32,000 nt of DNA, from contig JABDFA010000011.1 in the NCBI GenBank assembly GCA_013286795.1, forward strand, positions 6,341 through 38,340, read 5' to 3'. Positions 2,089 to 29,740 of the stretch are shown one piece after another. Each line of letters begins with the position of its first letter. Position 1 is the stretch's first letter. The stretch comes from Candidatus Babelota bacterium. Its GTDB lineage: Bacteria; Babelota; Babeliae; Babelales; JABDEC01. The translations under genes and the position numbers were made by a program. Under the pieces are notes generated by a model. That model was not told the origin of the DNA, made no database searches, and saw only the letters and a list, made by a program, of their open reading frames with translations.

Positions 2089-3966
2089 TTATGCACCAAA
2101 AGTTGAAGATGAATTTTCATCTTGAACTTGAGTGGTTGTTTCTTGAGATTGAGCAGCTGGAGTTGCAGGTTGTTCTTGAACAACTGGAGCAGCTACACTA
2201 GCTGAACTAGTTGAACTTGAAGATACAACTTTATTGTCTTGCGCTAATGTTTCCATACCCTTTTCTACATAATCTTGTAGAGAAAATGGTAAAAAGCTAG
2301 CTATAGACATATCGTTAGTTGATTCTTCTTGCTTTTTAGCTTCTGCTTGAACTGCAACTGGTTGTTCTTGAGCAGGTGCTTGAACAACTGGAACTTCAGC
2401 AGCAACTGCCGCTGCTACTTGAACTGCAGGTTCTTCTTTGATAACTGGAGTTGCAACTGGGGCAGCTACACTTGATGAACTAGAAGAACTTGAGCTAGAA
2501 GAAACATTACCAGCAAAGAAGCTGTTAACTCTTTCTGTAGCTACTTTATCTTCTTGTTCTTTTGTATCTACTTTAACAACAACTGGTTCTTGAGTAACAG
2601 GTTTTGCAGCTTCAACAGAAGCAGGACCAAAAACCTTGTTTCTCATTCTTCTCAAGAATGACAGATTATTCGATTTATCTTGAGCTACCACTTCTTCTTG
2701 TTTTTTTGTATCTACTACTGGAGCTGCAGCTGGTTGTTCTTGAGAAGCAGGTTTTGTAGTATCAAATCCACCAGAAATTTCTATTTCTGAAGGTTTTTGA
2801 TCCTGCTTTGACAATCTTGCTTCTGTAGCACGTGCTAATTGTTCACGTTTAGCAGCAGCTTCTTGTCTATCTTTTTCTTCAGCTTCTCTTGCAACAGCTT
2901 CTTGGTGTTCTCTACGAGCTTTTTCTCTTGCTTTTTGCTCAGCATCTATTTGAGCAGCTTTTTCTCTAGCTTTTTGATCAGCAAGAGCTTTTGCTTCTTC
3001 TTTAGCTTTTTGCTCAACTGCAAATCTTGCTTTTTCTTGATTTTGACGACTTAATTCATCGTTAGCTACCCTTACAGCTTCATGTCTAGCTTTTTCTTCT
3101 TGTTCACTAGTCAATCTTACAGATAAAGCAATAGCTTCTGCTTCAGTTTTAGCATTTTCTTGTGCAACAAGTCTTGCTTGTTCAGCTTGCTCATTTCTTT
3201 CTTTTTCTTCTTGAGCTTGACGTTGAAGTTCAGCCTGGGCAGCAGCTAAGTTTACAGCTTTTGCCATTTGGGCCATAAGATCTGTATTATTTAGATCTTC
3301 AGCCTTTTCTTTGCCTTCTTTATCTTCTTTGTCTTCACCATCTTGCTTTTTGTCAGCATCAGGTTTAACATCTTGTAAAGATGCAGCATAAGCTTTAGAT
3401 TCAGCTAAAGCAACTAAAACATCAAAATCATCTTGATTTGCTTGAACTTTATCTTCTTGAGCTTGTTGAGCTTGCGCAACAGCTTGATCTTTAGGCAATG
3501 CATTCAATTCTTCTATGAAAGAATCTTTTTGAGCCCTAAAAACACCAAAGTTTATGCCTCGTTTAGCAAATATAGAATCAACAGCCGGGTTTAATCTACC
3601 TGTTTCATCTATAAAAGGACCTACAAGGTTCAAAACTTCATCCATTACTGGAACTATTTCAAAGATAAACTGTTCTCTAGACATATTATCAACGTTCGTG
3701 CTTATATTCACAAATATATCTAACAAGTCAGAAATTTTATCACTTGGAGCTTCAGCTACTGGGACTACCGGAGCTGCAACAGCTCTTACAGGAGCAACAG
3801 GCTTTGCAGCTGGTTTTGCAGCTGGAGCCGGAGCTACGATTCTGTGAGGTGCCTTCTTTTTCATTCCACAAGCGCCGCCCTTACAAGGTCTAGGTCTATA
3901 CATTGACATAACCAATGAAGATTGTGCCAATGCAAGAACCATTAATTTAACTATTAGCTTTTTCAT
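2089..3966 (-). CDS. Secreted low-complexity / coiled-coil protein (Ala-Pro-Val-rich, K/E/A/Q-rich, poly-Ser)
   Basis: 625-aa ORF with a GGGAGG RBS just upstream of the ATG at 3966 and leader MKKLIVKLMVLALAQSSLVMS. It contains an AP-rich spacer, a long KEAQ-rich helical region, Ser runs, and repeated Sn-VAAPV...QEQP modules. No enzymatic motif was seen. Confidence 0.7.
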   Translation of the reverse strand: MKKLIVKLMVLALAQSSLVMSMYRPRPCKGGACGMKKKAPHRIVAPAPAAKPAAKPVAPVRAVAAPVVPVAEAPSDKISDLLDIFVNISTNVDNMSREQFIFEIVPVMDEVLNLVGPFIDETGRLNPAVDSIFAKRGINFGVFRAQKDSFIEELNALPKDQAVAQAQQAQEDKVQANQDDFDVLVALAESKAYAASLQDVKPDADKKQDGEDKEDKEGKEKAEDLNNTDLMAQMAKAVNLAAAQAELQRQAQEEKERNEQAEQARLVAQENAKTEAEAIALSVRLTSEQEEKARHEAVRVANDELSRQNQEKARFAVEQKAKEEAKALADQKAREKAAQIDAEQKAREKARREHQEAVAREAEEKDRQEAAAKREQLARATEARLSKQDQKPSEIEISGGFDTTKPASQEQPAAAPVVDTKKQEEVVAQDKSNNLSFLRRMRNKVFGPASVEAAKPVTQEPVVVKVDTKEQEDKVATERVNSFFAGNVSSSSSSSSSSSVAAPVATPVIKEEPAVQVAAAVAAEVPVVQAPAQEQPVAVQAEAKKQEESTNDMSIASFLPFSLQDYVEKGMETLAQDNKVVSSSSTSSASVAAPVVQEQPATPAAQSQETTTQVQDENSSSTFGA

Positions 3967-6465: not shown

Positions 6466-7134
6466 CTAAAGAATCACACAACATCTTTTTTTTATTTTAT
6501 GATTTTCACGATTTATAGTAAAAGTTCGAACCGGTAAACTCTCTACATATTCTATTTTTTCTAACATGTCAGTTGATAATGGCACGTTACTTCTTATAGT
6601 TCTTATCATATCTTTCATCAAGTCACCTACTTCATTAAATGCAGCTATTCTTTCTACATCATATTTATTTTTAATTTTTTTATTAATATCTGCACCGGAT
6701 TCTAATAATAATCTAACTACAGCAAATCTATGTTGATTGACAGCTAATGCAAGAGGAAAACATCCTTTGAAAAATTTTTCATCCCATTCTGCATTAACAT
6801 CTACACCTAGAGAAATAGCTGTTTTAACCAGATCCAAATTGTTATCGAGAATTCCCTGTTCAAGAATTTTAAGTAATGCCTCTTTTTCTTCATTAGATTG
6901 GCCGATATAAGCATAAACTATTTCAGATAAATCCTGAGCAGGGCAAACATTATTTTCATCAAAAAATCCTTGAATCTTGTTTTTTGCAGAAAGCTTCTTG
7001 AATGATTCGACAACATCTTCTTGTGAATTAAGTTCGCTTTCTATTTTTTCGTCACTAAAATCATAATAATCTAGGTTCATACAATTAGTTTTGGAAAATA
7101 TCACAAGTAATGCGAATATTTTAATTATTTTCAT
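6466..7134 (-). CDS. Secreted ankyrin-repeat protein with C-terminal polybasic CaaX box (CVIL)
   Basis: Leader MKIIKIFALLVIFSKTNC. Ankyrin consensus appears in GCFPLALAVNQHRFAVVRLLLESGADINKK and the preceding repeat. The C-terminus is HKIKKRCCVIL-stop (CVIL at 6469-6480). The start overlaps the uvrB stop by 14 nt. Confidence 0.8.
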   Translation of the reverse strand: MKIIKIFALLVIFSKTNCMNLDYYDFSDEKIESELNSQEDVVESFKKLSAKNKIQGFFDENNVCPAQDLSEIVYAYIGQSNEEKEALLKILEQGILDNNLDLVKTAISLGVDVNAEWDEKFFKGCFPLALAVNQHRFAVVRLLLESGADINKKIKNKYDVERIAAFNEVGDLMKDMIRTIRSNVPLSTDMLEKIEYVESLPVRTFTINRENHKIKKRCCVIL

Positions 7135-9918: not shown

Positions 9919-10428
9919 TCAACAGTATGGAAAACAACATTTTGATTTTTCTACAACATCACTAATTAATTTTTGGACACATTCTCTAAAAAATTTCTCT
10001 TGATCCTGAAGTAAGTCTTCAATTGTTGCTCCCGATAATATTTTTTCATTATAGATCAAAGCAAGCCTGCTTAAATTCAATTTTTTAATAGAATTAATTT
10101 TGTTGGCTATTTTTCTTTTAGTCCAGGGCATAACACGTAAGTTTTCAGATTCTGTTGCAATTATATGATCAAAACTCTCAGTTAAATGTTTAATAAAGTT
10201 ATCACGCGCAGCACTTCTAGCCTCTTCTCTTATAGCTTTAACACTAATACTATTTCTTGGAGGTAGTGGTGGCTTTTGTTGTAATACTACTACAGGATGA
10301 CCTTCAGTTTGATATCCAGGTTGCTGATCAGGAGCACTAGGTCTTGAACTTAAATTATCTCGATAATATTGATCAAATGCACACATCTTGCATACAAATA
10401 ACAGGGGTAAAACTAAGAGCTTTTTCAT
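9919..10428 (-). CDS. Small secreted hypothetical protein (Pro-rich N-terminal region, C-terminal Cys cluster)
   Basis: AGGAG RBS upstream of the ATG at 10428 and leader MKKLLVLPLLFVCKMCA. It contains KPPLPPR (10255-10275) and ends SKCCFPYC. The helical region (KKLNLSRLA...ATIEDLLQDQEKFFRE) resembles the 10503..11126 product (RELNLSQSFA...GTLDALIFEAERKFRD). Confidence 0.6.
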   Translation of the reverse strand: MKKLLVLPLLFVCKMCAFDQYYRDNLSSRPSAPDQQPGYQTEGHPVVVLQQKPPLPPRNSISVKAIREEARSAARDNFIKHLTESFDHIIATESENLRVMPWTKRKIANKINSIKKLNLSRLALIYNEKILSGATIEDLLQDQEKFFRECVQKLISDVVEKSKCCFPYC

Positions 10429-10502: not shown

Positions 10503-11126
10503 TCATAATTCTAATTCATCAGCAAAAGTTAAAGTAATATCTTCATCTGCTTCATATTCTACTACTTCGTTTTTATCATCTTTTTTTCTACATTTATAGC
10601 ATAAGAACCATTTCTTAAGTTTATCTTTGAAAAGATTTATATTTAATCTATCTTGGTTTCTAATCAATTCTTCAACTGAATCTTCAGCTAGACTAAAAAG
10701 AGTATCCCTAAACTTTCTTTCTGCTTCAAATATTAATGCATCAAGTGTTCCTAGTTGAGCAAAACTCTGTGACAAATTTAATTCTCTCAATATTAAATCT
10801 TTTTTTATTTTGGCACACCTTTTCATATCATTAACAGAAAGGGCTCCTAAATTTTTAATCTTTCTGTTTGCCTCAGGCAAATCCCAACTCTTAACATTCT
10901 TAATGACTGTCCTACTTTCAACCCCAGGAATAACAAACTCTAGTTTAATATTTGCAGCTGGATTCCCTTTTAATCTACTAACATAAATTTTGAAATTAGA
11001 AATATTATATTTAAAACTGTCTGAAAGATAGGATATAGTTTTCTGGGTGTCTGATTTTTTGATATTTTTATCCATGCAATTAACGCTAGACACCAGAAAA
11101 AATAAATTAATTAAGATTTTACCCAT
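10503..11126 (-). CDS. Small secreted hypothetical protein (paralog-like to 9919..10428)
   Basis: AAGGGAGA RBS upstream of the ATG at 11126 and leader MGKILINLFFLVSSVNC. It has a Cys-basic cluster KKWFLCYKCRKKDDK followed by an acidic tail. Confidence 0.6.
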   Translation of the reverse strand: MGKILINLFFLVSSVNCMDKNIKKSDTQKTISYLSDSFKYNISNFKIYVSRLKGNPAANIKLEFVIPGVESRTVIKNVKSWDLPEANRKIKNLGALSVNDMKRCAKIKKDLILRELNLSQSFAQLGTLDALIFEAERKFRDTLFSLAEDSVEELIRNQDRLNINLFKDKLKKWFLCYKCRKKDDKNEVVEYEADEDITLTFADELEL

Positions 11127-14917: not shown

Positions 14918-15616
14918 ATGAACACTAAATCAACACTCTACATAACGTTAGTTTTAATATCTATTTTTTCAGTAAATAAACCTATGGGTATAGAATCTCA
15001 AAAAATTAAAAAATGTGCCCGTAGAAAATTGAATAGAAAGTTGCGTAAAGCAATAATTAATAATAATTTAAAAAAAATAGAAACACTTTTGGAAAAAGGC
15101 GCTAATCCTAATATTAAAATAAGGCATATGATCACGCCTCTGGTTTATGCTGTATATGAAATTTCAAGTCCAAAAATGGTTGAACTGTTATTAAAATATA
15201 AGGTAGACGTTAATGATTATTATAAAAGTAATGAATATAAAGCTATACATTTAGCTATTAGAAGCTGCAACATTTGTATTACTAATTTATTAATTGATGC
15301 AAAAGCAGATATCAATATCCAAGACTGTTGTGGCAATGCCAGCTTACATTTTTTAAATATAAAACATAGGCCTGAAACATCCCTTAAACTACTTCCATTA
15401 TTACTTAACCATGGTGGAGATGTAAATATAAAAAACTTTGACAATAAATCTTTTTTAGATTTAGCACAAGAACAAAACAAAAAAGAGATTTTTGACATTA
15501 TCAAAGAACACCAGAAATTAATTATAAAAAAAATAGCTGAAGCAACTAAATATTGTCTGCCAACTGTATTAGAAAATATGATTGGCGAATATATTATATT
15601 TTTGGAAAATAAATGA
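14918..15616 (+). CDS. Secreted ankyrin-repeat protein, array member 1
   Basis: Leader MNTKSTLYITLVLISIFSVNKP and ankyrin repeats (TPLVYAV...MVELLLKYKVDVN; AIHLAI...LLIDAKADINIQD). The C-terminal tail is CLPTVLENMIGEYIIF. The stop overlaps the next start (ATGA). Confidence 0.85.
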   Translation: MNTKSTLYITLVLISIFSVNKPMGIESQKIKKCARRKLNRKLRKAIINNNLKKIETLLEKGANPNIKIRHMITPLVYAVYEISSPKMVELLLKYKVDVNDYYKSNEYKAIHLAIRSCNICITNLLIDAKADINIQDCCGNASLHFLNIKHRPETSLKLLPLLLNHGGDVNIKNFDNKSFLDLAQEQNKKEIFDIIKEHQKLIIKKIAEATKYCLPTVLENMIGEYIIFLENK

Positions 15617-16332
15617 ACAAATTAATTTTATACGTAATAATAACTTTATTATCAATCTCTCTATCTAACTATGCAATGATTCAAGAGTTAAACGAAAAAC
15701 TTCGTAAATCTGTAGATCTACAAGATCTAGAATTAATGGAAAAAACATTAAAAAATGGGGCTGATCCGAACCATATGGTAAAATATTGGACAAACGAAAC
15801 TTTAAAATATTGGCATGGAGATAAACCAATATTACATTATGCTATATTACAAAACTGCGATTCAAAAGTTATTGAACTTTTATTAAAGTATGGAGCAAAT
15901 ATAAATATTACAGAACGCAATAATTGGAATGCCCTATTTTGGGCTATAGAGAGAAATAATTTAATTATAGCGCAATTATTAATTAAACAAGGAATAGATT
16001 TAAATCTACAAGGTTTAAACAATGATACATGCCTTCACAGAATAATTCAATGCAAGTTCCCCTTTTATAATGACCCGCACAACACACAAAAAACTCGTGT
16101 TCTAAAAATCATTAATTTATTACTTCAATTCGGAGCTGATATAAATATAGAAAATAACCAAAATAAAACCTTTTTAGATTTAGTAAAACAATCCCAATAT
16201 AAGGATATACTCAAGGTTGTTAAAGAATGGCAAGAAATAACAAACAAAAAAATATTAGAAGAAACTAGCCCCTACTTGCTCCCTGTATTAGGAAATATAG
16301 TTAGCGAATATGTTACTGGATTAACGATATAA
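15613..16332 (+). CDS. Secreted ankyrin-repeat protein, array member 2
   Basis: Leader MNKLILYVIITLLSISLSNYA. The central region is about 60% identical to member 3 (ILHYAILQNCDSKVIELLLKYGANINIT...). The tail is EWQEITNKKILEETSPYLLPVLGNIVSEYVTG. Confidence 0.88.
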   Translation: MNKLILYVIITLLSISLSNYAMIQELNEKLRKSVDLQDLELMEKTLKNGADPNHMVKYWTNETLKYWHGDKPILHYAILQNCDSKVIELLLKYGANINITERNNWNALFWAIERNNLIIAQLLIKQGIDLNLQGLNNDTCLHRIIQCKFPFYNDPHNTQKTRVLKIINLLLQFGADINIENNQNKTFLDLVKQSQYKDILKVVKEWQEITNKKILEETSPYLLPVLGNIVSEYVTGLTI

Positions 16333-16337
16333 AACTT

Positions 16338-17066
16338 ATGAATAATAAATCAACTTTATCAATAATAATTTCTTTATCAATTTCTCTTGCAAATAATTCC
16401 ATGGATGAAAGGCCTAAAAAAAGAATCTGCTTAGAAAGCTATAGATACGAATATAAAAAATTTAAAGAAGCAATAGATACAGGAAATTTGGAATTAATGG
16501 AAAAACTAATACAAGAAGGAGTTGATCCTAATTGCATGATAGAATATCTGAGTGATAGTAGGTTTGCTTATTTCAACACTGGAGACATGCCAGCATTGCA
16601 TTACTCTATACTAAATGATTGTGACTCAAAAGTTATTGAACTTCTATTAAAATATGTCACGGATATAAATATTACGGACGATAATCATCGGAATGCACTA
16701 TTTTGTGCAGTAGAGAAAGGTAATTTAATTATTGCTCATTTGCTCATTAAACAGGGAATAGATTTTAATTTAAAAGATAATAAAGGTGATACATGTTTGT
16801 GTAAATCATATTACCGTTTTGTTTTTAATCAAAATGGCATCAAAGAAATTCGCTCTCTAAATATAATTCATTTATTAATCTATTCAGGCGCTGATATAAA
16901 CATAAAAGACAGCGATGATTACAGTTTCTTAGATTTAGCAAAAAGGAGTTGGGATGGAAGGATACTTGCAATAATTTTAGACTGGAAAAATTCCATTACT
17001 AAAGGAATTAGAACTTACATGCCGGCTGATTTAGGAAATATAGTTATCAAATATGTTACAGGTTAA
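16338..17066 (+). CDS. Secreted ankyrin-repeat protein, array member 3
   Basis: Leader MNNKSTLSIIISLSISLANNS followed by MDERPKKRICLE. Ankyrin repeats are present, and the tail is YMPADLGNIVIKYVTG. Confidence 0.88.
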   Translation: MNNKSTLSIIISLSISLANNSMDERPKKRICLESYRYEYKKFKEAIDTGNLELMEKLIQEGVDPNCMIEYLSDSRFAYFNTGDMPALHYSILNDCDSKVIELLLKYVTDINITDDNHRNALFCAVEKGNLIIAHLLIKQGIDFNLKDNKGDTCLCKSYYRFVFNQNGIKEIRSLNIIHLLIYSGADINIKDSDDYSFLDLAKRSWDGRILAIILDWKNSITKGIRTYMPADLGNIVIKYVTG

Positions 17067-17080
17067 ATAAAATTAAATTT

Positions 17081-17629
17081 ATGAACGCAAAATTAAACTT
17101 ATTTCTAGTAACATTTTCTCTATCTACGTTTCTTGCAAATAATTCTATGGATGAAAGACCTAAAAAAAGAATTTGTTTAGAAGAAGAATATAGAAAGAGA
17201 AAATCAACATATAATTGGAGGCATGATGTACGTATTAAAGACTTCGAATTCATAGAAGAAGCGTTACGAAACGGAGCAGATCCCAATTTTGAAATAGATT
17301 TTTTTGAAGGTAGCAATCTTTCCTATACAGGTTTACATTATGTAATTAAATGCTATAAATATCTTAGAGAAAAGGAAAAATCCCAACAAGCCTTAAATAT
17401 TATTAGATTATTACTTAAATCTGGTGCTGATATAAATTTAGAAGACACTCTAAAAAAAAGAACTTTTTTAGAACTAGCAAAAGAATCTGATGATGAGGAT
17501 ATACTTAAAATTATTAAAGAATGGCAAGAAGAAACAAACAAAAAAATATTAGAAGAAACTAGTCCCTACATGCCACCTGTATTGGGAAATATAGTTAGTG
17601 AATACGTTACAGGTAAATTAGAACAATAA
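17081..17629 (+). CDS. Secreted ankyrin-repeat protein, array member 4 (short mosaic copy)
   Basis: The 5' end (leader + MDERPKKRICLE) matches member 3. The 3' end (KEWQEETNKKILEETSPYMPPVLGNIVSEYVTG) matches member 2 almost nucleotide for nucleotide. The central ankyrin repeats are reduced. Confidence 0.85.
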   Translation: MNAKLNLFLVTFSLSTFLANNSMDERPKKRICLEEEYRKRKSTYNWRHDVRIKDFEFIEEALRNGADPNFEIDFFEGSNLSYTGLHYVIKCYKYLREKEKSQQALNIIRLLLKSGADINLEDTLKKRTFLELAKESDDEDILKIIKEWQEETNKKILEETSPYMPPVLGNIVSEYVTGKLEQ

Positions 17630-25340: not shown

Positions 25341-26594
25341 TTATTCTTCTGGAGCATACCAATCTTCAGGATCAACTATTCTTATTGGCCGTTCCCCGCC
25401 TTCTATTACAATACCACTTGAAGGTTCTGAAGCTTGTTGTCCTTCTGCTTCTTGTTTTTTTTCTTCTTGTCTTATTCTAGGTTGCGCTTCAGGAGAATGT
25501 TGTATTACAGGCAATTCTAAAGTTAAAGACCAGGGAGTGGAGCCTACTTCAGGTTTAGTGTCTTTTTGGACAGCTGCCCCTGTTAATCTTGCTTGTTCAA
25601 TTCGTTCATTTCTTTCTTTCTCTTCTTGAGCTGAAATTAAACGTTGTGCTTCTCGAATTTTTTCTTGCTTTTTTTGGTGAGCTAATTCTATAGCTTCAAT
25701 TTCAGAACCGAAGTTTTCAGCTTCTTCTCTATTTATTTTTGCTTCTTCAGATCTTACTACAGGTTGAGATTTTGCTGGTTCTGGTTTTATAGATTGTGGT
25801 TTTTGAGAAACTGTTGAAGCTTGTGCTTTTTGAGATTTTGCGCAAGCTGCTTCTATAGCCATTATCTGAGCAAGAAAATCTTCTTCATCTTGTTGTTGTT
25901 TAGGTGCAACATACTTTGGCTCTTCTAGCTTTATTCCAGATTTTTCCTTTTCAAATCGCTCAGAATTCAAGATTTGTTTTATTTGTGGATCTTTTGCATA
26001 GGAATAAGCATCTCGTCGATCTTTATTTACAAATTTAGGATCAGCACCATTAGCCAATAATAATTTAACTGTTTCAATCTTGCCATCTATAGATGCTCTC
26101 ATCAAAGGGGTAAGGTTGTTACTATAAGAGCCATTGACATTTGCTCCTTTTTCTAAAAGCAATTTAGCCAACTCAAAACTTGTATTGGCCGCCAGATAAA
26201 GGGGAGTATCACCATAAGCATTCGAAGCGTTTACATCAGCCCCACTTTCTATGAGTAACTTAGCTATTGGGAAATTTCCACGAAACGCTGCTGTCATCAA
26301 AGGTGTCCATTTAGCACCAGCACTAGTATCAGGAGCATTTACATTTGCTCCATTTTTAATAGCATTTTGAACTTCAATTATGTTACCATGATTTATTGCT
26401 TTTATAAGTTTCTTATTTTCTTCTTTCTCTTTATTTTCTTTTTCTTCTGATTTTTTAGTCTCTTTAGCTTTTTGACAAGCGACTTCAATTTTAGCAATCT
26501 CAGCGCTTAAATCTTCTTGCATTCCCATACCAGAAATTACTGATATATTAGCAAAAGCAACAAAAAATAAGCTAATTAATTTAAGGTTTTTCAT
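25341..26594 (-). CDS. Secreted ankyrin-repeat protein with repeated helical motif and K/E/Q-rich C-terminal region
   Basis: Leader MKNLKLISLFFVAFANISVISG. There are four good ankyrin repeats (TPLMTAAFRGNFPIAKLLIESGADVNA; TPLYLAA...LLLEKGANVNG; TPLMRASIDGKIETVKLLLANGADP). A GGAAGG RBS lies upstream. Confidence 0.88.
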   Translation of the reverse strand: MKNLKLISLFFVAFANISVISGMGMQEDLSAEIAKIEVACQKAKETKKSEEKENKEKEENKKLIKAINHGNIIEVQNAIKNGANVNAPDTSAGAKWTPLMTAAFRGNFPIAKLLIESGADVNASNAYGDTPLYLAANTSFELAKLLLEKGANVNGSYSNNLTPLMRASIDGKIETVKLLLANGADPKFVNKDRRDAYSYAKDPQIKQILNSERFEKEKSGIKLEEPKYVAPKQQQDEEDFLAQIMAIEAACAKSQKAQASTVSQKPQSIKPEPAKSQPVVRSEEAKINREEAENFGSEIEAIELAHQKKQEKIREAQRLISAQEEKERNERIEQARLTGAAVQKDTKPEVGSTPWSLTLELPVIQHSPEAQPRIRQEEKKQEAEGQQASEPSSGIVIEGGERPIRIVDPEDWYAPEE

Positions 26595-26802: not shown

Positions 26803-27598
26803 CTACAAATACTCAAAAATCAGATTTAATAGTTCTTTTGGTAAGGGAGTATTTTTATAAGCAATTTCATACTTATTCTTATTAAAAGAAATACAGTCTT
26901 CCCTTATAGCTTCACGAACCTTACTATTTTTAGCAAAGCTAAAACAATTTAGCCCCATTAGAGTCTTTCAATGCACTATCGGCTCCGGATTTTAATAAGA
27001 ATAAAGCTAGCTTCACATTGCCCATTTTGGCTGCATACATAAGAGCAGTTCTTCCTTGATAAGTTTGCCTATTAACATCGGCATCAAAGCTAACCAATAA
27101 CTTTGCAGCTTTTAAACTTAAAGAATTAAATTTTGAATCACAGACTTCTATCAAAGGTGTAAATCTATGTTTATTTGCTAAATTAGCATCTGCTCTGTTA
27201 AAGAGTAATAATTGTATCATTCTTAAATTAAGAGGAGTTCTGCAAACATTTAATAATGGGGTATTTCCAGCATCATTCTGATTATCTACATTTATACCTT
27301 TTATAGAAAGCAAAAATTCAATAATTTTTTCATCTTCAAAAACAATATTATTTGTTAAAATATTTAAAAGAGAATTTCTATATTTAAATAAACAATTAAC
27401 ATCTGCTCCCTGTTCAATTAACTCTTTAATATTTTCCAAATTTTTTATATGCAGCGTCTGCATTCTTAATAATTCATTTAACGAAGGTATATTTGATTCA
27501 GGTTCCTCTCTTTTTCTTTTTCGATTCATACCATCTATATATAAAAATTGGACACTTAAAATCAAAAAGCAAATTATTAATTTTTTACAATATTTCAC
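26803..27598 (-). pseudogene. Secreted ankyrin-repeat protein interrupted by a 1-nt homopolymer frameshift (called ORF 26939..27598)
   Basis: GTG start at 27598 with AAGGGTGG upstream, leader MKYCKKLIICFLILSVQFLYIDG, and ankyrin repeats. The ORF stops at ...DSNGAKLF-TAG. Removing one base from the A4 run at 26941-26944 continues the frame as SFAKNSKVREAIREDCISFNKNKYEIAYKNTPLPKELLNLIFEYL-TAG (stop 26803-26805). That restores the family C-terminal tail. Confidence 0.6.
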
Positions 27599-27715: not shown

Positions 27716-27744
27716 TTGACAATCTGAAAATAACAATATATAAT
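27716..27744 (+). promoter_or_regulatory. Consensus sigma-70 promoter of the UIM/Josephin-like gene
   Basis: TTGACA (27716-27721), exactly 17 nt, TATAAT (27739-27744). A GGGAGG RBS at 27768-27773 lies 6 nt before the ATG at 27780. Confidence 0.6.
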
Positions 27745-27779
27745 ATAATTATGTAAGTGTAAAATTAGGGAGGATCCAA

Positions 27780-28865
27780 ATGAAAATTTCAAAAATAATA
27801 TTCTTATATCCCATTATTGTAGTATCAATTTTTGCCAAAACGATATTATCTATGGACAAAGATTTAGCACAGGCTCTAAAACAGAGTTTGGCAAGTAAAC
27901 AGGCTGAAGATGCAGAAAGAAAAGCAGAACGTGATTTGGCTGATGCCATAAAAAATAGTCTAAAAAGTTCCGACGATGACGACAAAAAAGTAAAAGAAGA
28001 AAATTTTCACATCGTACCTGTATTACCACAAAAAGGAGCGGATTGTGGTTATCATGCAATAAAAAATGGAAATATACTATATCAATGGTTAGCTGCAGAT
28101 GGAATATTAAAACAAGAAACAAAAAAAGAAATTGAACGAAGACTTAATGTAGAAGATGAAGAAAATTTCCCTTTAGAAAAATGGAGATCAATAGTTGCTC
28201 AAGTTAGAAAGGACAAACCTACTTTTGGCACAAAAGCAGGAGCAAACTTATTTGATATAGAAATAGCTAATATAATAAAAAATGAATTAAAATTATCTCC
28301 AGAAACATATTCTGTAATTGCAAACATAAATGAAATCGCAGAAAATAATAATAAAATTTTAGAACCTTTAGCTAAAACAGTAGAAAAAATAAGACTCAAC
28401 CCAAATGCCACACATATATTCATTTTGGGAAATATGAAAGAAACCAATGTAGCCTGTGGTCACTGGATAGCTGTTGTTCTAAAAAGAGATAATCGAAACT
28501 ATGAATATTACATTATGGATTCACTTGGTAGTAAAAGCAAAACCATAAACCCAATGGTTAAAAGCTTAGACACTGTATTAAAAAAAGCTAGATTAGATAT
28601 TGCCAAAATTCCAACTCTTGCAATCATAATAAATGAAGCTATAGACGCGATCCAAGAATTAGACATAAAAACTTGTCTGGCAAAACTTAAACAAGTAATA
28701 GAATCTAAATTAAATCCATTTAGTGATAAAACATTTGCCCAAGAAAACACAAGTCGTGTCAAACAAATATTAAATGGTATCATAGAATTTGGCTCAGAAG
28801 AAGATAAAAAAGAAGCACAAGAGCTTTTGAATAAACTTGCTCTAAAATCTAATATAAAAACTTAA
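27780..28865 (+). CDS. Secreted protein with two UIMs and a Josephin-like papain-fold cysteine protease domain (candidate deubiquitinase)
   Basis: Leader MKISKIIFLYPIIVVSIFAKTILS. UIM cores are DKDLAQALKQSLAS (27855-27899) and ERDLADAIKNSLKSSDDDD (27924-27971). QKGADCGYH carries Cys89 (28044-28046). GHWIAVVLKR carries His228 (28461-28463). YYIMDS carries Asp247 (28518-28520). Confidence 0.8.
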   Translation: MKISKIIFLYPIIVVSIFAKTILSMDKDLAQALKQSLASKQAEDAERKAERDLADAIKNSLKSSDDDDKKVKEENFHIVPVLPQKGADCGYHAIKNGNILYQWLAADGILKQETKKEIERRLNVEDEENFPLEKWRSIVAQVRKDKPTFGTKAGANLFDIEIANIIKNELKLSPETYSVIANINEIAENNNKILEPLAKTVEKIRLNPNATHIFILGNMKETNVACGHWIAVVLKRDNRNYEYYIMDSLGSKSKTINPMVKSLDTVLKKARLDIAKIPTLAIIINEAIDAIQELDIKTCLAKLKQVIESKLNPFSDKTFAQENTSRVKQILNGIIEFGSEEDKKEAQELLNKLALKSNIKT

Positions 28866-28890: not shown

Positions 28891-29047
28891 TTATACAAAA
28901 AATTCTTTTTCATCTTCATTTATACTTTCTTGGGCTAATTTGATTAATTTCTTAATTTTTTTTGTTTTAGCCAACTCTAAAAGCGACTTTTTACCTCTCA
29001 AATTAAGATATGGAAAAAAAATTGATATGCAATATAAATTAGTCCTA
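28891..29047 (-). pseudogene. Degenerate duplicate of the 3' end of the 29045..29740 gene (non-coding remnant)
   Basis: A Met-less minus-strand frame reads ISIFFPYLNLRGKKSLLELAKTKKIKKLIKLAQES...FFV-stop. The gene's own C-terminus reads TSIFLPFLNAKCKQEILEIVQQ. At the DNA level, 29002-29039 matches 29138-29175 at 32/38 positions, offset 136 bp. Confidence 0.35.
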
Positions 29048-29740
29048 ATGCATATCTAAACTACTTTTAATTAATCTCACAAATTTTCTCATATTTCTCT
29101 GTTGAACAATCTCCAAAATTTCTTGCTTACACTTAGCATTAAGAAATGGAAGAAAAATTGAAGTGAAATAAAAATCTTTTCTATTGCCTTCAAAATATGG
29201 ATTCTTATACACATTTTCAACTTGAAGACTCATACCTTCAGATATGATAAACTTAAGCCATTTATTATCATACCTTAATCTTATTATATCTTCTTTTGTA
29301 GGATTCTTATTATCATTCACATATTTTTGATACGCATTAACAACAATTCTCCATAAATAATCACTATCTTCTTTCACATGTCCATGTTGCTTATCAGTCA
29401 CAAATAAAAATCCAGCAACATAAGAAAATAGTTCGATTTTATTTTTATCTTCACCAATATCTCTCCAAAATCTAAAAAAACTCATTTTATCAGGCAGCAA
29501 AGCTCCATTATCAATTAAGATATCAACTAATTCTCTGTTATTCCTAGAAATAGCTGTCCATAAAGCCTCGTTTTTATATTCATTGGCTATTTTTTCTTCT
29601 TGCAAGATATTAGTAACCTTATTTTTATGACCATTAAGAGTTGCTGTAACCAAATATTTTCCCGGATTATTTAAAACCGGACTCATGGATTTTAAGTTAA
29701 AAGAAATAAATAATAAGATAAAAATAAGTTTAAATTTCAC
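29045..29740 (-). CDS. Secreted hypothetical protein with one or two weak ankyrin-like repeats
   Basis: GTG start at 29740 with an AGGAAA RBS and leader MKFKLIFILLFISFNLKS. An ankyrin-like segment ALWTAISRNNRELVDILIDNGALLP is present. Confidence 0.6.
   Translation of the reverse strand: MKFKLIFILLFISFNLKSMSPVLNNPGKYLVTATLNGHKNKVTNILQEEKIANEYKNEALWTAISRNNRELVDILIDNGALLPDKMSFFRFWRDIGEDKNKIELFSYVAGFLFVTDKQHGHVKEDSDYLWRIVVNAYQKYVNDNKNPTKEDIIRLRYDNKWLKFIISEGMSLQVENVYKNPYFEGNRKDFYFTSIFLPFLNAKCKQEILEIVQQRNMRKFVRLIKSSLDMH

Follow-up and report, generated by a model that had tools for sequence, protein, structure and literature searches.

Permuted homologs of the Ulp1/C48 proteases, provided with signal peptides, were predicted in Babela massiliensis, a member of TM6/Dependentiae, by authors who considered this permuted form to be restricted to that organism (Pagnier et al., 2015, Biol Direct 10:13; PMC4378268). 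The same organism encodes 126 ankyrin proteins, 79 of which carry signal peptides (PMC4378268), and many putative effectors of Dependentiae are reportedly exported through Sec leaders (PMC6561590; PMC4378268). A permuted papain-like fold was also described in EschOTU of Escherichia albertii, a sequence-permuted OTU deubiquitinase with a crystal structure and a measured activity (Schubert et al., 2020; PMC7396840). Here we report on a window of 32,000 nucleotides (nt) from a Candidatus Babelota bacterium (contig JABDFA010000011.1, positions 6,341 to 38,340), in which all positions below are counted, and on the gene at 27780-28865 of that window. It probably encodes a Sec-exported, effector-type cysteine isopeptidase, the catalytic domain of which would be a circular permutant of the clan CE fold of Ulp1 and SENP. 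A protein of this kind has been predicted once already, in 2015, and is uncharacterised; the gene reported here differs from that precedent in its architecture, in its intact catalytic residues and in the wider family to which it belongs.

The protein and the Babela proteins have several features in common. In both, the Cys box lies N-terminal to the His box. The supplementary consensus of the Babela proteins (Additional file 13; Q..scGYHALYN at amino acids (aa) 28-62 and IFIL..HWITcV..FIFADSLG at aa 344-391, HHpred 75-91%; PMC4378268) is close to the QxGADCGYHAxxN, HxFILGxM, GHWIxVV and DS of the present family, a likeness judged by eye and unscored, from machine-read supplementary text. Somewhat atypical signal peptides were predicted for the Babela proteins, and the N-terminus here would be consistent with one of that kind. 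In both, the setting is that of an amoeba-parasite-like bacterium rich in leader-bearing ankyrin genes, and the profile support is similar, at about 90%. On the contrary, the Babela proteins have an AAA ATPase, about 280 aa between Cys and His and no reported ubiquitin-interacting motifs (UIMs), and several of them are apparently inactivated, whereas the protein studied here combines two UIM-like motifs, 139 aa from Cys to His, a helical C-terminal tail and intact catalytic residues. No match to the AAA family was found in the protein or in 100 members of its family. Moreover, the present permuted form occurs in at least 150 sequence clusters, compared to the single organism of the Babela authors. 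We found no later paper on permuted Ulp1 proteins, and a literature search combining Dependentiae and Ulp1 came back empty.

The catalytic domain and its place among cysteine proteases

The catalytic domain is very probably homologous to the clan CE proteases (Ulp1/SENP), with a permuted order. Only four close homologs were returned by a word-indexed protein search, and scanning genome contigs for the patterns of the family yielded no relative. When the alignment of the catalytic domain was used for an exhaustive HMMER search, 150 or more representatives (clusters at 50% identity) had E<1e-3, including 21 with E<1e-10. An earlier note on this DNA, made from the sequence alone, had recognized a Gln five residues ahead of a Cys, followed by a His and then by an Asp. 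This arrangement was borne out, with Gln84-x4-Cys89, His228-Trp229 and Asp247-Ser248 conserved at 90-99%. Indeed, in an alignment of 103 domain sequences, conservation reached 93% for Gln84, 97% for Cys89, 92% for Gly90, 90% for Asn96, 84% for His212, 97% for Phe214, 99% for His228, 93% for Trp229, 90% for Asp247 and 96% for Ser248, which is far beyond chance. Read from the sequences, this set of residues characterizes papain-like cysteine proteases that possess an oxyanion Gln. The Cys box stood before the His box in 127/127 members possessing both, and the canonical order was seen in none. The family has no model in Pfam or NCBIfam and its members are annotated 'hypothetical protein', so that it is invisible to surveys of bacterial deubiquitinases.

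The sole Pfam signal of the protein was Peptidase_C48 (PF02902), located on the His box. When the profile of the family was compared in its native order to the PDB, only clan CE entries were matched, namely the Wolbachia CidB 7FIU (E 9.2e-5), SENP1 and SENP8. In these alignments, the C-terminal His/Asp box fell on the N-terminal half of the CE proteases and the N-terminal Gln/Cys box on their C-terminus. In a permutation test, the N-terminal Cys block of every member was moved behind the Asp helix and the searches were repeated. The two stretches aligned to 7FIU (25.8 bits, E 9.2e-5) became one collinear stretch running from His to Cys (32.4 bits, E 8.7e-7), and the match to SENP8 improved from E 0.076 to E 0.0026, in one stretch over profile positions 47-194. 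New PDB matches appeared (African swine fever virus (ASFV) S273R, ChlaDUB1 and an Ulp1-like SUMO protease), all of clan CE. Similarly, Pfam C48 was matched at E<0.01 by 13/47 members after permutation, compared to 9/47 in native order, and the permuted Pfam scan added RickCE_cat, SidE_DUB and LupA, which are all of CE type.

The columns of the alignment were also submitted to a systematic circular-shift scan with hhalign. Against SENP8, the probability rose from 30% in native order, where only the C-terminal 56 columns were aligned, to 93.7% after the shift (E 1.9e-7, cut at aa 146-155), and the full shifted alignment gave 93.5% over 176 columns (SENP8 residues 25-211). It rose from 81% to about 94.4% against SENP1 (E 8.8e-8), and from 46.9% to 94.9% against a three-sequence CE profile (E 4e-8, 174 columns). 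The SENP8 and SENP1 templates were verified against the PDB, and their reversed versions, used as controls, stayed at 0.2% both in native order and when shifted. UCHL3 remained below 1% in both orders, on which ground the UCH class was rejected. OTU, USP, herpes-tegument-like and MINDY proteases were rejected as well, as none of them was among the listed Foldseek or PDB profile matches.

In the His half of the domain, the alignment to SENP8 pairs NLFDIEIANII with SWLNDHIIGFA, THIFILGN with RVVFLAIN, GHWIAVVLK with THWSLLVYL and YYIMDS with FFHYDS, after which the next helix falls on the equivalent helix of SENP8. In the Cys half, FHIVPVLPQKGADCGYHAIKN is paired with AFVEEKAPAQQNSYDCGMYVICN and FPLEKWRSIVAQ with KKRGEWKDLIAT, the last at the very end of SENP8. 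From this element-by-element pairing, no core element of the Ulp fold is missing and their cyclic order is unchanged, and the new termini would have been opened between the helix that follows the Asp and the strand that precedes the Gln.

An AlphaFold2 (AF2) model of aa 62-289, built on an alignment of 47 sequences, reached a mean predicted local distance difference test (pLDDT) of 91.1 and a predicted template-modelling score (pTM) of 0.88, and its order of secondary-structure elements agrees with the permuted CE mapping. The AF2 model obtained from the four close homologs alone was unusable (pLDDT 52.7), and around the Cys helix it differed in secondary structure from the later model. The best Foldseek matches in the PDB were all of clan CE (SENP8/NEDP1, NopD, AvrA and the monkeypox virus (MPXV) core protease, with E 0.04-0.5 and template-modelling scores (TM) of 0.2-0.3). 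SENP8/NEDP1, as 2BKQ and 1XT9, was aligned over about 140 columns with E 0.04-0.16 and TM 0.28-0.31, and no Josephin, OTU or UCH was among the matches listed by this search. Foldseek aligns in sequence order and cannot fully score a permutant. A partial, order-limited match of the model is thus what is expected for a circular permutant, and is weak evidence when taken alone.

Several results weigh against homology with the CE proteases. The curated CE threshold was not reached, PF02902 scoring 17.0 bits in native order and 20.4 bits after permutation for a gathering score of 20.7. Yeast Ulp1 was weak in hhalign, at less than 1% in native order and about 16% when shifted, and hhalign topped out at about 94-95%, with templates that are single sequences or a three-sequence profile. 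No Foldseek match to the PDB had E<=1e-3, the best reaching E 0.04 and TM 0.28-0.31. Finally, Asn156 (28245-28247) stands where the clamp Trp of the WLxD helix would be, a Trp that is kept in many relatives (family consensus WLDDxEI) and in the SENPs. In the SENPs, this Trp is one of two that clamp the Gly-Gly tail, and its change to Asn156 may alter how the tail of the substrate is held. In the close orthologs, Asn156 is kept with an aromatic residue two positions on (NLFD, NLWD, NLYD).

Compared to the canonical CE proteases (SENP8/NEDP1, SENP1, CidB 7FIU and ChlaDUB1), the protein shares the HW...DS and Q..(D/N)CG motifs, the WLxD helix and, after the shift, all core elements, and its chemistry is probably that of a Cys-His-Asp isopeptidase acting at a Gly-Gly C-terminus. 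It differs by a partial Foldseek match, by Asn156 in place of the first clamp Trp, by scores under every curated threshold and by its order, which is Gln84, Cys89, His228, Asp247 where the canonical threading of the clan is His, Asp/Glu, Gln, Cys. With its Cys first, the protein falls outside the canonical members of clan CE.

This order might also be explained otherwise. A circular permutation is considered to link clans CA and CE (discussed in PMC7396840), and a Cys-first order could therefore be ancestral. The family would then be a separate, Cys-first papain-like family of deubiquitinases of the clan CA type in which the CE order never existed, either as an ancestral intermediate between CA and CE or as a lineage with motifs convergent on the Ulp1 type, and 'permuted CE' would be a descriptive term rather than a historical one. 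Such an explanation is in line with the 127/127 informative members being Cys-first, with no intermediate of canonical order, with the absence of any significant Foldseek match in the PDB, and with full-length, same-order matches to Klosneuvirinae proteins when Foldseek was run against viral models. However, the collinearity with the shifted SENP8 over 176 columns extends to all secondary-structure elements, among them the WLND helix and the helices that follow that of the Cys, which makes convergence of the active-site motifs alone hard to accept, and no CA-clan family (Josephin, UCH) rose above noise. We consider it quite unlikely that the family arose in this way, and retain homology to the CE proteases with a permuted order.

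The viral models were those of BFVD, in which the best viral matches to the model of aa 62-289 (27963-28646) were large uncharacterised proteins of Klosneuvirinae, i.e., Edafosvirus A0A3G4ZWX5 (E 7e-5, probability 1.00, TM 0.44 on the query, 251 columns), Hokovirus A0A1V0SFN0 (E 8e-4) and Hyperionvirus A0A3G5ADB8. These model comparisons hint that the permuted fold may also be present in protist-infecting giant viruses. No viral sequence relative was found by a pattern scan of IMG/VR.

A Josephin-type deubiquitinase (ataxin-3-like, MEROPS C86) with N-terminal UIMs was what the earlier note had proposed, on the basis of three blocks described as collinear with ataxin-3. Such a protein could be akin to the bacterial Josephin deubiquitinases and clippases of Hermanns and Hofmann. 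The catalytic order is indeed the same (Gln-x5-Cys...His-Trp...Asp/Asn-Ser), bacterial Josephins exist (10.1101/2024.07.24.604956), and ataxin-3 likewise joins a deubiquitinase domain to UIMs. However, the Josephin order of Gln/Cys, His and Asn/Asp is common to all clan CA proteases and is thus not diagnostic. Pfam PF02099 had no match to the protein at E<=10, and touched one of the 47 family members at E 0.003, below threshold. No Josephin was found by searching the PDB, which includes ataxin-3, ATXN3L and JOSD2, whether the query was the single sequence or the profile of 47 family sequences (E<=10), nor among the top 50 Foldseek matches of the pLDDT-91 model in the PDB. The ataxin-3 Josephin template was checked against 1YZB and 2AGA (E 1e-123 or better). 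The family profile compared to it by hhalign gave 2.3-3.1% at every circular shift, and 2.3% in native order, with the His region only. Instead of three collinear blocks, hhalign aligned either the Cys box (QKGADCGYHAIKNG with QEGSLCAQHCLNNL, 14-16 columns) or the His box (40 columns), with a probability of 2-3%, whereas the CE-clan matches were consistently stronger and covered at least 170 columns. The Josephin assignment was therefore rejected, and we regard it as extremely improbable. The remainder of the earlier proposal, an effector-type deubiquitinase with a leader, a cysteine-protease active site and N-terminal UIM-like motifs, is supported by the conserved catalytic residues, by the enrichment of UIMs in the family and by the leader-bearing ankyrin neighbours. 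The likeness to ataxin-3 and to the bacterial Josephin deubiquitinases and clippases is then one of functional analogy, made of a deubiquitinase-type cysteine protease domain joined to UIM helices, of the catalytic order and of short motifs in the Cys and His boxes. It goes with UIMs that are C-terminal in ataxin-3 and N-terminal here, and with no significant similarity in sequence or structure.

The main criterion that distinguishes clan CA from clan CE is whether Cys or His comes first, and a large Ulp1/SENP-like family with the Cys first tests it directly. So far, the opposite case alone has experimental support, through the permuted OTU of EschOTU. Like EschOTU, the protein would be a bacterial effector deubiquitinase, its effector role being predicted here, with a permuted papain-like fold that blurs the threading criterion between CA and CE. 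It represents the mirror case, EschOTU being a CA-clan OTU with the His first whereas the present domain is CE-like with the Cys first; the two sequence families are unrelated, and the present one is known from sequence and model. A bolder view would make the protein the founding type of a large family of Sec-exported, Cys-first deubiquitinases with the Ulp fold in protist-associated bacteria, possibly shared with Klosneuvirinae, as the CE-side counterpart of EschOTU, the CA/CE boundary having been crossed both ways. We hold this view as speculative and doubtful as a whole. If it were true, the shifted termini and the loss of the first clamp Trp might mean that ubiquitin is read or cut in a non-canonical manner, e.g., with a restriction of chain type by the tandem UIMs or with a shifted cleavage site.

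UIM-like motifs and predicted function

The earlier note had pointed out two cores of the UIM pattern, defined as acidic residues followed by phi-x-x-A-x-x-x-S, after the leader. Both strings are present, but the Pfam UIM model fails to recognize them and the second one is degenerate in the orthologs. Two points concerning these motifs count against the main explanation. Pfam UIM PF02809 had no match to the protein or to aa 20-72 alone, even at E<=10, and the UIM segment (aa 25-70) is the fastest evolving and least constrained part of the protein. Compared to the syntenic ortholog described below, the ratio of nonsynonymous to synonymous substitution rates (dN/dS) was 0.36 for this segment, 0.16 for the catalytic domain, 0.20 for the C-terminal tail and 0.21 for the whole coding sequence. 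In the family, the UIM pattern occurred 37 times in 25/152 proteins, compared to 3.5+/-1.9 times (maximum 11) in 200 shuffles, and nearly always lay after the leader and ahead of the protease domain. Each of the N-terminal segments of relatives that were tested (9/9) had a match to Pfam UIM or RAP80_UIM, in three of them above the gathering score. As far as sequences allow, we read the two motifs of the 27780-28865 protein as degenerate UIMs. The recurrent fusion of UIMs to the protease in the family is the best available argument for ubiquitin as the substrate. A literature search for effectors combining UIMs and a CE-clan domain found nothing.

On these grounds, the protein is predicted to be, most likely, a secreted effector with isopeptidase activity on ubiquitin or a ubiquitin-like modifier, and a function as deubiquitinase in the strict sense is favoured, with some reserve. 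We infer protease activity, a ubiquitin substrate, cleavage of the leader and delivery to the host, which could be combined as follows. The leader of 24 residues would carry the protein over the inner membrane, and the eukaryotic host would be reached afterwards, as proposed for the leader-bearing ankyrin effectors of Dependentiae. The canonical CE order consists of the WLND helical subdomain, the His and Asp strands, a helix, the Gln strand, the Cys helix and the C-terminal helices. Here, the final segment (a strand, Gln84, the helix of Cys89 and two further helices; aa 76-146) would come first and be joined to the usual N-terminus by a loop at approximately aa 147-155, with the resulting order Gln-Cys...His-Asp. 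Cys89, His228 and Asp247 would form the triad and Gln84 the oxyanion hole, whereas Trp229 would help to clamp the Gly-Gly tail of ubiquitin or of a ubiquitin-like modifier. The permuted domain would then hydrolyse the isopeptide bond that follows Gly76 in ubiquitin, or that of a ubiquitin-like modifier, and the degenerate UIM helices at aa 26-38 and 50-62, or one of them, may add avidity for ubiquitin or polyubiquitin.

The fold may be right and the activity another one, i.e., a protease specific for SUMO or NEDD8, or an acetyltransferase of the YopJ or ChlaDUB type. The best eukaryotic matches, SENP8 and SENP1, are specific for NEDD8 and SUMO, respectively, AvrA, a YopJ-type CE acetyltransferase, is among the Foldseek matches, the UIMs of the protein itself are sub-threshold, and Pagnier et al. 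took the Babela homologs for desumoylases (PMC4378268). Yet real UIMs are fused to many members of the family, and the top PDB match is the ubiquitin-specific deubiquitinase CidB of Wolbachia. Most characterised bacterial CE effectors are also said to prefer ubiquitin, as Pruneda and colleagues reportedly found in 2016. We consider an activity other than deubiquitination unlikely.

The protein could also be directed at no host at all. It would then be a protease-like protein of the periplasm, or one anchored in the membrane or devoid of activity, with substrates of bacterial origin, and the UIM-like helices would be a charged linker. Indeed, the leader might be a signal anchor that stays uncleaved, the window showed no dedicated secretion system, and the UIM region is the least constrained and fails Pfam. 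However, bacteria are without ubiquitin and yet relatives of the protein bear real UIMs, the leader-bearing ankyrin neighbours are typical eukaryote-directed effectors, and purifying selection acts on the catalytic residues, which are intact. Moreover, Dependentiae reportedly export many effectors through Sec leaders (PMC4378268; PMC6561590). We therefore judge a role restricted to the bacterium very unlikely and keep to a secreted isopeptidase effector. If active, the family would enlarge the effector repertoire of little-known parasites of protists by a substantial class of proteases for ubiquitin or ubiquitin-like modifiers, and its compact, well-predicted domain (pLDDT 91) would be suited to structural and specificity studies.

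Among 100 members of the family (P0020 and others, from outside the window), a PP2C phosphatase domain (E 1e-63) accompanies the protease in one and ankyrin repeats do so in one, suggesting that the permuted protease domain is combined with other eukaryote-directed modules.

The gene, its leader and its neighbourhood

The open reading frame (ORF) at 27780-28865, which runs on the + strand from ATG to TAA, is a genuine gene under purifying selection, as indicated by a syntenic ortholog, a dN/dS of 0.21 and a conserved promoter (Table 1). The protein is 86%, 61% and 67% identical to its orthologs. The first of these, at locus L082, is the syntenic one and shares the upstream order of a polysaccharide-synthesis gene, two GT2 genes and two ankyrin genes. 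The promoter and the ribosome-binding site announced by the earlier note were both found as described. The promoter hexamers and their spacing are preserved upstream of the L082 ortholog, which has GGAGG at the place equivalent to the Shine-Dalgarno sequence. The C-terminal tail is conserved in the four close homologs only and had no family match in Pfam and NCBIfam scans.

Table 1. Features of the 27780-28865 gene and of the region upstream, in window coordinates.
Feature	Positions	Strand	Basis
Sigma-70-type promoter, TTGACA (27716-27721), 17 nt, TATAAT (27739-27744)	27716-27744	+	12/12 consensus matches
Shine-Dalgarno sequence GGGAGG	27768-27773	+	6 nt 5' of ATG; read from sequence
Coding sequence, 361 aa: predicted leader, two UIM-like motifs, probable permuted Ulp1-like catalytic domain, helical tail	27780-28865	+	ORF call, orthologs
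Predicted Sec-type leader, aa 1-24, MKISK / IIFLYPIIVVSIFA / KTILS	27780-27851	+	hydrophobicity scan
UIM-like motif 1, aa 26-38, DKDLAQALKQSLA (Ala32, Ser36)	27855-27893	+	UIM core pattern; conserved in orthologs P0002 and P0003
UIM-like motif 2, aa 50-62, ERDLADAIKNSLK (Ala56, Ser60)	27927-27965	+	UIM core pattern; degenerate in orthologs
Catalytic domain, aa 76-276, very probably a circularly permuted CE-clan (Ulp1/SENP-like) cysteine protease	28005-28607	+	AF2, shifted hhalign, PDB profile search
Gln/Cys box, aa 84-96, QKGADCGYHAIKN (predicted oxyanion Gln84 and nucleophile Cys89)	28029-28067	+	aligns to SENP8 QQNSYDCGMYVICN and CidB QQTDGHNCGIWAYEN
Loop, aa 147-155 (DKPTFGTKA), putative join of the ancestral C- and N-termini	28218-28244	+	shift-scan peak; pLDDT 78 (domain residues 81-90)
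Helix NLFDIEIANIIKNE, aa 156-169, equivalent of the SENP 'WLNDxII' helix	28245-28286	+	hhalign alignments
His/Asp box, aa 227-248, GHWIAVVLKRDNRNYEYYIMDS (His228, Trp229, Asp247, Ser248)	28458-28523	+	aligns to SENP8 THWSLLVYLQDKNSFFHYDS, SENP1 and CidB
C-terminal helical tail, aa 284-361	28629-28862	+	predicted helices, pLDDT 75-89 even in the shallow AF2 model

The N-terminus of the protein, MKISKIIFLYPIIVVSIFAKTILS, presents a basic n-region followed by a hydrophobic core (Kyte-Doolittle 2.8-3.0). The leader predicted by the earlier note is therefore plausible, its layout in n-, h- and c-regions and its hydrophobicity being consistent with a signal peptide. By sequence, it would be cleaved before Met25, near Ser24/Met25. 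A similar leader-like N-terminus was seen in at least 92 of the 152 family members by a crude hydrophobicity test.

Leaders are borne by 15 ORFs of the window, and in 12/15 of them a Met follows the hydrophobic core within 10 residues, compared to 12.8% expected (binomial p = 6e-9). In nearly all of these ORFs, the Met comes immediately behind the leader, as in ...ILS|MDKD, ...ISG|MGMQ, ...IDG|MNRK and ...NNS|MDERPKK. Leader-bearing ORFs are found for instance at 733-1893, 2089-3966, 6466-7134, 9919-10428, 10503-11126, 25341-26594, 26939-27598 and 29045-29740 on the - strand, and at 14918-15616, 15613-16332, 16338-17066, 17081-17629 and 27780-28865 on the + strand. In the wider protease family, a Met after the leader was present in 30/108 members, compared to 16% expected (p = 0.0017). 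This residue could be a lineage-specific cleavage or sorting motif, or an internal start giving exported and non-exported forms, or else the trace of leaders grafted onto old start codons.

The window has a GC content of about 30% and contains ordinary bacterial housekeeping genes, including uvrB, rpsA and glyA. Its UvrB has its best match, at 71% identity, in one MAG labelled Pseudomonadota, all others being at about 50%, and an origin close to Dependentiae would fit the low GC content, the leader-bearing ankyrin genes and the Babela precedent. The protease gene is flanked by leader-bearing ankyrin-repeat genes. The adjoining ankyrin gene (26803-27598, - strand) is frameshifted and split into an ORF of 219 aa (26939-27598) and another of 51 aa (26803-26958), and its syntenic ortholog is a single ORF of 262 aa (L082 5043-5831, - strand). 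The frameshift may reflect a pseudogene or an assembly error. The C-terminus that this gene has in common with its ortholog, ...NTPLPKELLNLIFEYL, resembles by its appearance the start of an F-box or PRANC motif, in which case a gene similar to a ubiquitin-ligase adaptor would lie beside the putative deubiquitinase.

Further upstream, four leader-bearing genes are arranged in tandem at 14918-17629 (+ strand). The genes starting at 14918 and 16338, which were the two scanned, gave weak matches to models of the Legionella Dot/Icm ankyrin effectors AnkY, AnkG and AnkX. The genes starting at 16338 and 17081 share a near-identical mature start, NNSMDERPKKRICLE, which points to their recent duplication.

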